DNA of 64,000 nt from an uncultured Rhodospirillaceae bacterium (GCA_964587125.1 CAZPKC010000006.1:7881-71880), one strand, 5' to 3'. Numbered from the stretch's first letter, positions 20,104-23,431 are shown. Made by a program: numbers and translations. The notes: generated by a model not told the origin, from the letters alone.

Positions 20104-22227
20104 CTATTCCTTCGGTTCCGAGGGAATAAGCTTCTCGATCTCTTCCCTGCCCTGCCTGTTTTCCATAAAATCGGCCAAGGCGACGACGACGCGGCGGTCG
20201 AAATTCGTGCCGATCTGGTCCAGAAGATTTTTGATCGCCTGATCCATGCCCAGCGCCTGACGATACGAACGCCTGCTGATCATTCCGACAAAGGCGTTGG
20301 CGACCGCGATAATGCGCGCCGTAATGAGAATATCCTCGCCTTTCAACCGCAAGGGGCCGGAGCCGTCGTAACGCTCTTGCGATTGGCGCAACGTATCGAC
20401 CACGGGCCCGTCGAATTCGATTTTTTCCAAAAGCCCGATGCTGCTTTGCAGGGATTCGTGAATCGAACGCTTCTCGTCGTCGGTCAAAGCGGCTGTTTTG
20501 GTCAGAAGTTCGCTCGGCACGATAATCTTGCCGATGTTCATGAGATTTCCCGCCGTTTCCGCCGTCTCCACGCGCGCGCGGTCAAGCCCCATGCCGACGG
20601 CAACGGCGCGCGCGACAAGCGCCACGCACGCCGAATGACTGGCGGCGAAAGGATCGCGCCTGTCCACCATCGTGACCAGCATATCGATCACTTGGTTCAA
20701 AATACGCACGCGGTGCTCGCGTTCGTTCACAATCTCGGTGATGTCCTGATCGATCATCAAAACGCCGGGTGAAGGCACCGGCAATCCTTCGACGGGAATA
20801 TGATCTAAAGGAATATGTTCCGAACGCACCACGATGCCGCCGGAGCCGTTCTCAAGCGACCACGTGCGGACGTAAGGGCTTTGGCGCGCCAGAGCTATTT
20901 TATTCGCGTCCTCATAGCCTTTGGCGCGAGAGCTTCCCATCAGCGCGATGAGGCTTTTTCCGGCGACGTCGGGCGTCGTCAGGCGAAACGCCTTCGCCGC
21001 CTTGGCGTTGGCGAAGCGGGCAATATTGCCCTGATCCGCTATGACGATCGGCTCCATCTGATTATCGGCCACGACTTTCAACAGCTTTTCCTGCGCCGCG
21101 GAACGCGCGGCCATGCGCTGCGTCTCGAGCGACAATAAAAGAGTCCTTCTGGACGTGCCGTAATACCAGACCGAAACGATTCCGCCGATCATCGCCAGCA
21201 AGGCGAAAAACAAGCTGTATTCGATTTGCCGCAAGCGCACGTCGCTCTCGCCCATCGCTTGATCGCGGTCGATATGAAGCATAAGAATCCACGGCGACTT
21301 TGCGAGGGCGCGGCTTGTCATCAGGGTACGGCGCGCCTCCGCGTTTCTCTTCACAGCAAAATCCCCAGGCGACTCTATCGCAAAGGCGGCGTCCAGATCG
21401 GGCGTGTTCAGCGCCAGTTTCGACGCGGCGGCGCTTCCGCTTTCCTGCGGCGAAAGAACGGCGACGTTATCTCCTTCTTTGCGCAGCAAAACGGCCTCCA
21501 ACGTCTTTTCCGTCGCGCCAGGATGATGAAGAAGCTTGAAAAGATCGTCGCCCACGTTTTTCACGGCGATGAGTCGGCCAATAGGTTGTGCCGTGCCAAC
21601 GGCGGATTGAATGGGATAAATCGGAAACGCAAAGCCTATGCGGCTTTTGCCGTTTTCCGACGTGAAAATATCGATGAGAGAGGCCTGCCCGTCGGGCGCT
21701 TCCTCTATCTTGCGCGTCAAATCGGCGTCGAAAGCAGGCAAGCCCGCCGTCGAAACGATGATCTTCCCGCTTTTATCGACAATCGCGAGGCCCACGCCCG
21801 AAGGCTGCCCGACGCTGGCGTTGATTGATTTAAGCTCTTTCGATTCGTTCTCGACGAAACCGAGCCTGTCGGCGGTTATGGAAATCAGATTGCGCAAAAA
21901 AACGGCCTGCGCCGGGTCTTCCGCGCTTTTCGCCTCCGTCCCGCTCAGAAGCTCTGTCAGGTAAAGCTGCAAAGACGGATTGTTCGCGACATCGCCAAGT
22001 TCCTTGAAATGGCGGTCGAGCCACGCCTCGACATCTGCAGCGCGGCTGTCCGCGATAAGGCTCAACCTGTTTTGCCACGACAGAAGCTCGCGGTTTTGCT
22101 CGGTCGCAACGAAGCGCATGACGGCGGCGCTGCCCAGAACGGCTATCATCAGCACAAGCAGGACGAGAACCTTCGGGTTGATCGAAGGATTTTTCAGCTT
22201 CGGAAAACCTTTTGGCGTGAGAGTCAT
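20104..22227 (-). CDS. Membrane receptor: TM, periplasmic Cache-like domain, TM, PAS-like region, and a degenerate HD-GYP domain whose catalytic residues are replaced
   Basis: HD-GYP fold recognisable (AASHSACVALVARAVAVGMGL ... IGKIIVPSELL ... YDGSGP), but the HD dyad reads MN (NLMNIGKI) and the HHE..DGSGYP segment reads SQERYDGSGPLRL. Two hydrophobic TM segments flank a ~290-aa periplasmic region. Confidence 0.65.
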   Translation of the reverse strand: MTLTPKGFPKLKNPSINPKVLVLLVLMIAVLGSAAVMRFVATEQNRELLSWQNRLSLIADSRAADVEAWLDRHFKELGDVANNPSLQLYLTELLSGTEAKSAEDPAQAVFLRNLISITADRLGFVENESKELKSINASVGQPSGVGLAIVDKSGKIIVSTAGLPAFDADLTRKIEEAPDGQASLIDIFTSENGKSRIGFAFPIYPIQSAVGTAQPIGRLIAVKNVGDDLFKLLHHPGATEKTLEAVLLRKEGDNVAVLSPQESGSAAASKLALNTPDLDAAFAIESPGDFAVKRNAEARRTLMTSRALAKSPWILMLHIDRDQAMGESDVRLRQIEYSLFFALLAMIGGIVSVWYYGTSRRTLLLSLETQRMAARSAAQEKLLKVVADNQMEPIVIADQGNIARFANAKAAKAFRLTTPDVAGKSLIALMGSSRAKGYEDANKIALARQSPYVRTWSLENGSGGIVVRSEHIPLDHIPVEGLPVPSPGVLMIDQDITEIVNEREHRVRILNQVIDMLVTMVDRRDPFAASHSACVALVARAVAVGMGLDRARVETAETAGNLMNIGKIIVPSELLTKTAALTDDEKRSIHESLQSSIGLLEKIEFDGPVVDTLRQSQERYDGSGPLRLKGEDILITARIIAVANAFVGMISRRSYRQALGMDQAIKNLLDQIGTNFDRRVVVALADFMENRQGREEIEKLIPSEPKE

Positions 22228-22318
22228 AAGTCAACCCCTTTTTCTGGTTTATCGAACTTCGCGTTTTGCCCTGTCCGCCGAAGCCATAGCGTAGGCGGAA
22301 GACCAACCTAACGTGAAG

Positions 22319-23431
22319 TTATTCGGTCATAAAGTGCTGCCACCAGTGCTCCTCGTTGATGGAGTATATCGGGACATAGTGATAAACTTTATCGGTGGTG
22401 ACGACCTGCTTGATCTGATTATCCAACATATAGGACTTTTCGCCGACGGAGACAACCAGCACCGCATGGATCACCCCTCCCAGATTCAGGTCCTTCAGAA
22501 CCACGACCCGCATGATATCGTCGGGAACGCCCAGCGCGCGAAGGGACATGAATTTGGCGATCGCATAGTCTTTGCAGTTGCCGCTTTTGCGCTGGAACTC
22601 GTAAGGCGTTTCCCAGTAATTGTCGAAGCCCCAGTTCACGATGTCGTCGATATAGGGATATTTGTTGAGGAAGCGGTTAACCTCGTCCAATTGGTCGAGA
22701 AGAGAGTCGCCGCGCAATCCTTCCAGAAAATCTTTCCAATCCTTCAGCTTGCAGGGCGTATGTTGCTGCGAACCGCAGACGCTATCGAGCGTGTGGGCCT
22801 CGGCGCTATACCGCGAAAGCATCCCCGTCCATCTTGGAAACATGCCGATATTGTTGGAGCGCACTTCGCGATTGATAAAATAGGAATGAAAACCGCTCGA
22901 TAACACGGACGAAGATTCGGCTTCCTGTTCGACCGGCGCAGGAGGCGGTTTCGGGGCTTCGACAATAACGGGCGGAGGAGGTTTCGGAGCTTCAGCAATG
23001 ACGGGCGGTTGAAGCTTCGGGGGCTCGACGACAACAGGCGCAGGTTGAGGCGCGGGCGTTTTGGCGACGGGAGCAGACTTCGGCGTCTTGATAACCGGCG
23101 CAGGTTTGGGTGTCTCGACAACAGGCGCGGGTTGCTCGGGTTTCGGCGTTTCGACGACGGGCGCAGGCGGTTGAGGCGTTTCAACCGGGGGAGCGATTTC
23201 TTCCTCGGTTTTTGCGGGCGTTTCGGAAATGATTTCTTTCTGTTTTTCCGGCGCTGGAGTTTTTTCCTGAATTTTGCTTGGAAAAGCTTCTCCGACCGGA
23301 GCCGTTTTGACCGTTCCGTGATGGGATTTCAGGGACGGCGCGGACATCGAATAAAAAAGGATGCCGCTGACAAGCACGGCGCAGACCGCAATCGCCCAAA
23401 GAATCCGATAATGCGTGACGCGCAGCTTCAT
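22319..23431 (-). CDS. Bacterial transglutaminase-like cysteine peptidase (BTLCP/LapG-like) with N-terminal membrane anchor and Pro/Ala/Val/Lys-rich repeat linker
   Basis: C-terminal domain with GNCKDYAIAKF (catalytic Cys context matching the GDCEDYA-type BTLCP motif) and downstream His and Asp. N-terminal TM ILWAIAVCAVLVSGILFY. PAPVVETPKP-type repeats. Confidence 0.65.
   Translation of the reverse strand: MKLRVTHYRILWAIAVCAVLVSGILFYSMSAPSLKSHHGTVKTAPVGEAFPSKIQEKTPAPEKQKEIISETPAKTEEEIAPPVETPQPPAPVVETPKPEQPAPVVETPKPAPVIKTPKSAPVAKTPAPQPAPVVVEPPKLQPPVIAEAPKPPPPVIVEAPKPPPAPVEQEAESSSVLSSGFHSYFINREVRSNNIGMFPRWTGMLSRYSAEAHTLDSVCGSQQHTPCKLKDWKDFLEGLRGDSLLDQLDEVNRFLNKYPYIDDIVNWGFDNYWETPYEFQRKSGNCKDYAIAKFMSLRALGVPDDIMRVVVLKDLNLGGVIHAVLVVSVGEKSYMLDNQIKQVVTTDKVYHYVPIYSINEEHWWQHFMTE

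Follow-up and report, generated by a model that had tools for sequence, protein, structure and literature searches.

A DvhG/DvhD-type protease and receptor pair beside two-partner secretion genes in an uncultured alphaproteobacterium: a candidate c-di-GMP-gated switch for release of a surface protein

In a 64-kb stretch of DNA from an uncultured alphaproteobacterium (CAZPKC010000006.1; "the window" hereafter means this whole stretch), two co-oriented genes on the minus strand, separated by a gap of 91 bp (22228-22318), encode a predicted cysteine protease of the BTLCP/LapG type and a predicted inner-membrane receptor for cyclic di-GMP (c-di-GMP). The boundaries of both genes (Table 1) and the gap are exactly those assigned by a first-pass annotation, which proposed a switch of the LapD/LapG type built on a catalytically dead HD-GYP domain, and this proposal is strongly supported by the homology of the receptor to DvhD and by the co-conserved protease gene. 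The same annotation had supposed that a LapD analogue with a degenerate HD-GYP domain was undescribed; however, an inactive HD-GYP domain as the c-di-GMP receptor of a Lap-like switch is already published as the DvhD/DvhG system (DVU1020/DVU1019) of Desulfovibrio (Nitratidesulfovibrio) vulgaris Hildenborough, for which the genetics were reported by Karbelkar et al. (PNAS 2024, PMC10990149) and the structures of the DvhD dCache domain and of HD-GYP/c-di-GMP and PAS/HD-GYP fragments by Font et al. (Nat Commun 2026, PMC13090378; PDB 9rc0, 9rbz, 9rc2). DvhD is a LapD analogue whose PAS and inactive HD-GYP domains bind c-di-GMP with a Kd of ~0.3 µM and which controls DvhG, a membrane-anchored LapG-like protease (PMC10990149). 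Since the core idea is published, the locus opens no new category and its value is comparative; what looks new is a neighbour exported through two-partner secretion (TPS) as the likely target, together with a protease devoid of the usual calcium-binding residues. That neighbour is encoded on the far side of the receptor gene, directly downstream of which lies tpsB in convergent orientation, with tpsA divergent from tpsB.

Table 1. Position of the genes and of the encoded domains and motifs discussed in the text (window coordinates).
Feature	Position	Strand	Remarks
dvhG-like gene, BTLCP/LapG-type cysteine protease, 370 aa	22319..23431	-	PF06035 and LapG structure matches
Pro-rich spacer of the protease (PVVETPKP-type, 29% Pro), aa 45-175	22907..23299	-	
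Codons N285-C286-K287 of the protease: catalytic Cys, with N and K where LapG/DvhG have the calcium ligands D and E	22571..22579	-	
dvhD-like gene, predicted inner-membrane c-di-GMP receptor, 707 aa (TM1, periplasmic dCache, TM2, PAS, degenerate HD-GYP; TM, transmembrane helix)	20104..22227	-	
Periplasmic dCache-like domain of the receptor, aa 44-334	21226..22098	-	AlphaFold 2 model and Foldseek
Cytoplasmic PAS domain of the receptor, aa 380-494	20746..21090	-	Aligns to the PAS part of 9rc0_A; weak Pfam PAS match
Degenerate HD-GYP domain of the receptor, aa 495-700	20128..20745	-	45% identity to DvhD, 30% to PmGH
tpsB, Omp85-type TpsB transporter (POTRA_2 and ShlB)	17627..19501	+	Gene callers put the start at 17747
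tpsA, two-partner-secreted exoprotein, 979 aa, N-terminal TPS domain, candidate substrate	14565..17504	-	
C-terminal tail of TpsA, aa 935-979: PHAGG (935-939), PQAGG (950-954), ITPLIQ-C966-NEVTP-C972	14568..14702	-	Putative motif pair and Cys-x5-Cys "hook"

The receptor has the LapD-like topology described in the first-pass annotation, as both its hydrophobic segments (aa 13-43 and 335-357), which flank a periplasmic domain of ~290 residues, and the dCache fold of that domain agree with it. Within the cytoplasmic part the HD-GYP domain is recognized by Pfam HD_5 (PF13487, E 8e-32, aa 516-680), and a phmmer search against the PDB sequences matched the DvhD chains 9rc0_A (PAS and HD-GYP; E 3.3e-45) and 9rbz_A (E 1.4e-42), compared with E 1.6e-13 for the best active enzyme, PmGH. 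The alignment with 9rc0_A is continuous from aa 380 to 700 of the query and from residue 7 to 323 of the chain. Relatives of the receptor were collected by a pattern-plus-tblastn scan of 185,579 species-representative genomes, one per GTDB species; they are encoded in 423 of these genomes, and the best 80 of the 423 loci were retrieved. The dyad that gives the HD-GYP family its first two letters reads MN in the window (NLMNIGK), with the Asn invariant in 76 relatives, and the segment corresponding to HHE..DGSGYP reads SQERYDGSG-PLRL, in which HH has become SQ and the Tyr of GYP is deleted. Likewise, the distal D..D is represented by N644..V647 and the second His is unaligned, so that H531 is the sole metal ligand of PmGH kept. 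These replacements, several of which had been read before from the sequence, are seen in the alignments with both 9rc0_A and PmGH. An active HD-GYP phosphodiesterase was accordingly rejected as an identity for this protein, given that of the H, HD, H, HH and D ligands only the first His is left and that GYP is reduced to G-P. Loss of the metal ligands makes a phosphodiesterase function unexpected, and by analogy with DvhD, whose inactive HD-GYP domain shows similar ligand losses and binds c-di-GMP but does not hydrolyse it (PMC13090378), the domain encoded in the window is most likely catalytically inactive.

The periplasmic domain could not be related to the dCache domain of DvhD by sequence, even in a profile search of the PDB, and the Pfam matches of the receptor to dCache_1 and PAS are weak and both under the curated cutoffs (PAS E 0.003). 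An AlphaFold 2 (AF2) model of aa 40-345, with a mean predicted local distance difference test score (pLDDT) of 82.6, was compared with the PDB by Foldseek. Its best match was 9rc2, entitled "DvhD, periplasmic domain" (E 1e-12, target TM-score 0.74), and the E values of the other dCache domains matched, 4e-8 at best, trail it by four to five orders of magnitude. The receptor is placed in the DvhD family by three comparisons independent of one another: the phmmer search, the match of the periplasmic fold and the nucleotide-contacting residues considered below. Of the profiles proposed earlier for this protein, HD_5 was thus found, dCache_1 stayed below its cutoff and LapD_MoxY_N was not matched. 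Membership in the LapD family itself was rejected, no match to LapD_MoxY_N, HAMP, GGDEF or EAL being present in Pfam or NCBIfam at E values up to 1. A family-invariant motif of the periplasmic domain, NPSLQLY (aa 83-89), opens a broken helix alpha1' in the AF2 model, and helix alpha1' is implicated in the AlphaFold 3 model of the DvhD-DvhG complex (PMC13090378).

For the nucleotide site, the published list of contacts was used, in a numbering of DvhD checked on the chain of 9rbz (adding 490 to the position in the chain gives the residue of DvhD). In the canonical site, L577, K582, M646, R650, Y652 and R653 of DvhD correspond to L581, K586, M649, R653, Y655 and R656 in the window, of which R653, R656, L581 and M649 vary little or not at all among the 76 relatives; in the bridging site, K520 and P567 correspond to R524 and P571. 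Mutations of R650, Y652/R653 and P567 are those which most affect c-di-GMP binding in DvhD (PMC13090378), and their equivalents are all kept, from which we infer that the receptor in the window binds c-di-GMP as well. Other contacts are changed: Y523 is represented by F527, Y621, the GYP Tyr, is deleted, E668, which confers guanine specificity, is matched by Q in one alignment and I in another, and R569 of the bridging site is replaced by E573. Such changes would also fit a receptor that senses another nucleotide, such as 3'3'-cGAMP or pGpG, or that responds mainly to a periplasmic ligand through its dCache domain, as dCache domains usually are ligand sensors. In fact, the residue that reads the guanine N2 group in DvhD (E668) is not Glu in the window and the deleted Tyr is a phosphate contact, the cGAMP-specific HD-GYP phosphodiesterase 5z7c is found among the PDB matches, and the affinity of DvhD for 3'3'-cGAMP is lower than that for c-di-GMP by a factor of only about five (PMC13090378). 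Nevertheless, the equivalents of R650, Y652/R653 and P567 are conserved, R653 and R656 of the window receptor being invariant in the family, and an outside-in sensor would have neither a catalytic nor a DNA-binding output in this protein to act on; we consider recognition of another ligand very improbable.

The protease begins with a hydrophobic segment (aa 7-34), predicted to be an anchor or a signal, followed by the Pro-rich spacer and by a catalytic domain which spans aa ~219-367. This domain matches Pfam Peptidase_C93/BTLCP (PF06035) over aa 242-367 with 60.8 bits, well above the cutoff of 27, and, at E ~1e-17, two structures of LapG, 4u65_E and 4fgo_A; its catalytic triad C286-H322-D337 is kept in these structures and in 76 of 76 aligned relatives. 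The profile match, hydrophobic segment, linker and triad bear out the initial description of a membrane-anchored, Pro-rich cysteine protease of the BTLCP type. The NCBIfam LapG equivalog NF045674 was not reached (85.4 bits, cutoff 320). Two further cysteines, C219 and C227 (C-x7-C; 22754-22780, minus strand), are common to the alphaproteobacterial receptor-linked BTLCPs, stand upstream of the catalytic domain and are not found in the two LapG structures; they may form a periplasmic disulfide.

The motif GNCKDYA, which had been taken for an ordinary LapG motif, is present, but without the D-C-E calcium ligands, since the catalytic Cys is flanked by N285 and K287. Both LapG and DvhG need the acidic residues on the two sides of this Cys, and the D316A/E318A variant of DvhG is inactive (PMC13090378); an N-C-K enzyme could therefore be inactive or work differently. 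Among 74 receptor-linked BTLCPs, D-C-E occurs in 64, N-C-K in nine and D-C-K in one, the N-C-K group consisting of the clade of the window, with receptors at least 60% identical, and an independent case (locus L051). When 1.84 billion cluster representatives were searched exhaustively, 135 of the 150 best matches showed D-C-E; the remaining 15 carry NCK, DCK, ECK, MCR, QCQ or QCE, with one devoid of a motif match, and Lys or Arg follows the Cys (NCK, DCK, ECK, MCR) in eight of the 150. Five representatives (P0229, P0255, P0279, P0290 and P0348) carry Q-C-Q and represent a second kind without the calcium ligands. With D-C-E in 135 of 150 and the rest varied, loss of the acidic pair, often accompanied by Lys or Arg at +1, is by this sequence survey rare but recurrent.

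An impaired or repurposed protease, acting for instance as a non-proteolytic binding partner or with another specificity, would leave this lineage with no cleavage switch gated by c-di-GMP. The inactivity of the DvhG double mutant argues for such an outcome, as does the drift of the TpsA motifs described below from the di-alanine, and the two flanking positions are the sole fixed differences between the N-C-K clade and 66 D-C-E sequences (64 relatives and the two LapG structures). In contrast, the triad and the further core residues D263, D288 and W273 are strictly kept in 10 of 10 N-C-K sequences, and the gene is intact and linked to the receptor gene across relatives with 60-75% identical receptors. 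Moreover, Lys or Arg at +1 recurs independently, a pattern that resembles the selection of an alternative, in which a positive side chain may replace the cation, more than it resembles decay. We regard loss of the proteolytic function as quite unlikely, and hypothesize that the N-C-K protease may be a calcium-independent variant, although this is speculation.

The N-C-K clade also differs in the length of its proteins, as its open reading frames (ORFs) are mostly long (327-386 codons from stop to stop; 218 in locus L028) and contain a Pro-rich spacer, compared with mostly 215-260 residues for the D-C-E relatives, two of which were inspected (loci L091 and L092) and start with signal-peptide-like N-termini. 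DvhG is likewise membrane-anchored, through a disordered linker of ~180 residues (PMC13090378), and a tethered protease in a second, independent lineage is noteworthy. The spacer of ~130 residues may allow an enzyme anchored in the inner membrane to reach the tail of TpsA at the periplasmic mouth of TpsB.

Of the best 80 among the 423 loci, nearly all are labelled Alphaproteobacteria, including cultured Dongia species, Virgifigura deserti and many metagenome-assembled genomes labelled Rickettsiales, Rhodospirillaceae or Dongiaceae, and a few bear another label, such as Terriglobia; a protein identical to the receptor is found on metagenome contigs of ~110 kb. The 78 published DvhD homologues (Supplementary Data 1 of PMC13090378) include the alphaproteobacteria Sneathiella, Kiloniella, Pelagibius and Fodinicurvata, so that presence outside the sulfate reducers is already documented. 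A BTLCP gene is located on the 5' side of the receptor gene in 70 of the 77 loci among the 80 that could be assessed, having sequence on that side, a co-conservation which agrees with the functional pairing proposed at the outset; Dongiaceae and Rhodospirillaceae have it in divergent orientation, whereas in "Rickettsiales" loci and those like the window it is upstream and co-oriented. L001 and L007 (JBAZNY010000009.1 and JBAZLX010000040.1), which are closest to the window, encode a 75% identical receptor with syntenic DAHP synthase, pair, tpsBA and tetratricopeptide repeat (TPR) genes and are deposited as "Bdellovibrionales bacterium", which, next to the Alphaproteobacteria or Rhodospirillaceae labels of nearly all the other relatives, looks like a binning or taxonomy inconsistency.

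TPS genes stand beside the pair in five gene orders. In the window and in L001, L003, L004, L005 and L007, tpsB and tpsA adjoin the pair in the same order; in L009 the genes are collinear (dvhG-dvhD-tpsB-tpsA); in L024 the TPS genes are found downstream at a distance of 4.7 kb; in L091 (contig of P0083) tpsB, the BTLCP gene and the receptor gene form an operon with gaps of 8-9 bp, divergent from tpsA; and in L092 (contig of P0111) the pair is 5 kb from tpsBA. A reverse look-up covered the contigs of three TpsA homologues that share the tail described below, the third contig being too short to tell. No link of HD-GYP proteins or of DvhDG to two-partner secretion was found in the searched literature, and in the published tables of DvhDG neighbourhoods, which list genes of type I secretion systems (T1SS), nothing matched POTRA, ShlB, filamentous, hemolysin or autotransporter.

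The open frame 14565-17519, annotated at first as a TpsA exoprotein, is real and carries a TPS domain (PF05860, E 2e-21), and its cognate TpsB, which that annotation did not mention, is encoded between tpsA and the receptor gene. The end of TpsA reads LADLS-PHAGG-DNPTSLAELS-PQAGG-AGNAGITPLIQ-C-NEVTP-C-GIDGINQ, in which C966 and C972 lie within ITPLIQCNEVTPC, a segment conserved in L001, L007 and P0082. In L001 and L007, whose TpsA proteins are ~43% identical overall to that of the window, the tail is kept, with LAPAAGG, two copies of LSP[K/Q]AGG and an identical ITPLIQCNEVTPC; the tails of P0083 and P0111 have two LAPAAGG and a Cys pair, and that of P0082 PQAGG, PEAGG and a Cys pair. LapG and DvhG cut between the two alanines of the consensus [T/A/P]AAG (PMC13090378), and the LAPAAGG of L001, L007, P0083 and P0111, located at the positions of the window motifs, fits this consensus. 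The PHAGG and PQAGG of the window lack the canonical di-alanine. Among 120 TpsA homologues, P.AGG occurs eight times, all in four proteins, within the 100 C-terminal residues (12,000 residues in all), compared with four times in the other 142,226 residues. Apart from P0082, the only tails with a residue other than Ala at P1 are those of TpsA proteins from the N-C-K clade (window, L001 and, probably, L007), and tails with PAAGG alone pair with D-C-E proteases, the cases being very few. A search with the 194 C-terminal residues of TpsA returned two short fragments only, and a metagenome scan for the hook motif QCNEVTPC returned the L001 and L007 contigs again and otherwise chance matches.

A type Vb adhesin of Pseudomonas aeruginosa, CdrA, which is cleaved by LapG, ends in a C-terminal cysteine hook (bioRxiv 10.64898/2026.07.13.738186; PMC5422565), and its TAAG site, at residues 2105-2106 of 2154, is 49 residues from the C-terminus (bioRxiv 10.64898/2026.07.13.738186). 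The suggestion of the first-pass annotation that TpsA is a conceivable substrate gains from the TPS linkage in five layouts, the tail motifs and the Cys pair, but the absence of a di-alanine from the tail in the window stands against it, and we give TpsA an even chance of being the substrate of the protease. Alternatively, the pair would be a DvhD/DvhG module acting on a T1SS adhesin of the LapA/DvhA type encoded elsewhere in the genome, and TpsA and TpsB unrelated neighbours. All experimentally shown DvhG substrates are T1SS adhesins, the published neighbourhoods include T1SS components, and in the alphaproteobacterial relatives, for example Virgifigura deserti, the pair mostly stands without adhesin genes nearby, so that remote substrates must be common. 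On the other hand, the five gene orders, among them the tight tpsB-protease-receptor operon and the collinear dvhG-dvhD-tpsB-tpsA, and the PAAGG-type motifs before the terminal Cys pair, which occur in pair-associated TpsA proteins and in almost no other TpsA homologues, speak against this alternative. A T1SS or giant RTX adhesin beside the pair was looked for and rejected, as neither the window nor the 80 related loci contain a T1SS gene or giant RTX ORF, the related loci having no RTX-rich ORF of at least 900 aa. A distant T1SS adhesin as the substrate thus seems to us unlikely.

Adjoining tpsA, a gene at 13122-14513 (plus strand) encodes a 463-aa protein with N-terminal TPRs similar to those in O-GlcNAc transferases (7ntf_A is matched in this region only, E 3e-37) and a C-terminal region with weak similarity to GT9 heptosyltransferases (PF01075, 22 bits; TIGR02193, E 7e-4). 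L001 and L007 have conserved it beside tpsA, with 68-69% identity, and in L092 the receptor gene is also followed by a gene for a TPR protein. This protein may be an adhesin-modifying glycosyltransferase, for which we take HMW1C to be a parallel.

Sequence and fold comparison together with gene linkage form the basis for the homology of the pair, the loss of the metal ligands, the nucleotide contacts, the triad and the gene associations, and from these we infer how the protease is regulated, which protein it cleaves and where. The pair is very probably a homologue of DvhDG that works on the logic of that system, and the explanation which we find probable is that of an alphaproteobacterial DvhG/DvhD-type module acting as a c-di-GMP-gated switch that releases a surface protein, TpsA. 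The receptor would form a dimer in the inner membrane and its dead HD-GYP domain would bind c-di-GMP in the cytoplasm when the level is high. The signal would pass in an inside-out manner to the periplasmic dCache domain by a rearrangement of the stalk, the PAS domain and the transmembrane helices. The dCache domain would then hold or inhibit the BTLCP protease, with NPSLQLY at helix alpha1' as the element implicated by the DvhD-DvhG model, and as long as the protease is held TpsA would stay plugged in the TpsB pore by its Cys-Cys loop. A drop in c-di-GMP would free the protease, which would remain tethered to the inner membrane by a Pro-rich spacer able to span the periplasm, and the freed enzyme would cut TpsA at P-x-A-G-G upstream of the Cys-Cys loop, upon which TpsA would leave the surface, as happens with LapG and CdrA in P. 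aeruginosa.

Several observations weigh against this explanation. The window covers only part of the genome, every published DvhDG substrate is a T1SS adhesin (PMC13090378), and ~70 of the 80 related loci have no TPS genes within 10 kb. In addition, the protease departs from D-C-E at a site where DvhG tolerates no loss of both acidic residues, the TpsA motifs depart from the di-alanine, three of the nucleotide contacts of DvhD are changed, and the periplasmic domain, which is expected to provide the protease-docking surface, has no detectable sequence similarity to that of DvhD. A more detailed version of the probable explanation, which we put forward tentatively and hold to be doubtful as a whole, is that this is the first DvhD/DvhG-type module to act on a type Vb substrate, that its polyproline-tethered N-C-K protease is calcium-independent, with Lys taking the place of the cation, and that P1 specificity was relaxed as the tail drifted from PAAGG to P[H/Q/K]AGG.

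As for the surroundings, the dvhGD-tpsBA cluster is flanked by housekeeping genes (DAHP synthase, CTP synthase, purL, phaC, mraW and ftsI) with no obvious island. Gene predictors place small ORFs just downstream and just upstream of the pair, at 19597-19989 (130 aa) and 23561-23863 (100 aa), both on the minus strand; neither has a family match or a tblastn match in any related locus, including L001 with its 75% identical receptor, and both are probably spurious or strain-specific and outside the system. Consensus scans for promoters and terminators gave nothing usable for defining operons. Further away, 35671-50700 (minus strand) is probably a nuo (NADH:quinone oxidoreductase) operon, with NuoL-like and NuoG-like ORFs confirmed by Pfam, and the AT skew, which is strongly positive at 36-44 kb, probably stems from this stretch. 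At 60117-60188 (minus strand) there is a tRNA gene. An open frame of at least 787 codons (3-2363, minus strand), which runs past the left end of the window, contains a HEVGH zinc-metalloprotease-like motif and has no NCBIfam match, and a 917-aa ORF at 3178-5931 (plus strand) matches nothing but D-Ala-D-Ala dipeptidase (Peptidase_M15/VanX-like), weakly and below the threshold, at about aa 795-827.

With relatives of its receptor in 423 of the 185,579 genomes, the DvhDG-type module is widespread, and the present locus suggests that it is portable between type I and type Vb secretion, as LapDG is in Pseudomonas. The protease would be a natural variant of the LapG family without the calcium ligands deemed strictly required, which makes the role of calcium directly testable, and TpsA proteins released under c-di-GMP control could be predicted in other genomes by their tails, in which a Cys pair comes after (L-A/S-P-x-A-G-G)n.

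Compared with the active HD-GYP phosphodiesterases (PmGH 4mcw, RpfG and V-cGAP3 5z7c), the receptor shares the HD_5 fold, with 30% identity to PmGH, but has only the first His left as a metal ligand. With LapD/LapG of Pseudomonas fluorescens, and the orthologues in Legionella (CdgS9/LapG), Bordetella and Vibrio, it has in common a degenerate c-di-GMP-metabolising domain, which would serve as a receptor, and a homologous BTLCP protease with the same C-H-D triad; the proposed logic is also shared, with inside-out signalling, control of the periplasmic protease and cleavage of an adhesin at a [T/A/P]AAG-type site. Unlike LapD, the receptor is built without LapD_MoxY_N, HAMP, GGDEF or EAL domains, and unlike LapG the protease is seemingly membrane-tethered and not soluble, has its calcium ligands replaced and scores 85 bits where the NCBIfam cutoff is 320. 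As in CdrA/CdrB, a TpsA/TpsB pair is encoded near the regulator genes, and a putative cleavage motif ~30-45 residues from the C-terminus precedes a terminal Cys pair, a possible periplasmic "cysteine hook"; however, the regulator is of the DvhD type and not LapD, TpsA has 979 residues compared with 2154, its likeness to CdrA is seen in the general TPS domain, and its putative sites are tandem, non-canonical P-x-A-G-G motifs (PHAGG and PQAGG). From DvhD/DvhG itself the pair differs in its host, an uncultured alphaproteobacterium, in having TpsA/TpsB neighbours with no T1SS or DvhA-type adhesin nearby, in the calcium-ligand positions (N-C-K, not D-C-E), in the substitutions of the dead site (MN/SQ in the window and SQ/MN in DvhD, with the GYP Tyr deleted) and in a periplasmic domain that has diverged past sequence recognition. 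Nevertheless, the succession of transmembrane helix, periplasmic dCache domain, transmembrane helix, PAS domain and dead HD-GYP domain is that of DvhD, the cytoplasmic halves match at E 3e-45, with the HD-GYP domains 45% identical, the dCache structure of DvhD is the closest to the predicted periplasmic fold, the c-di-GMP contacts are mostly kept, and the adjacent gene encodes a protease which, like DvhG of D. vulgaris, combines an N-terminal hydrophobic anchor with a long Pro-rich or disordered linker.

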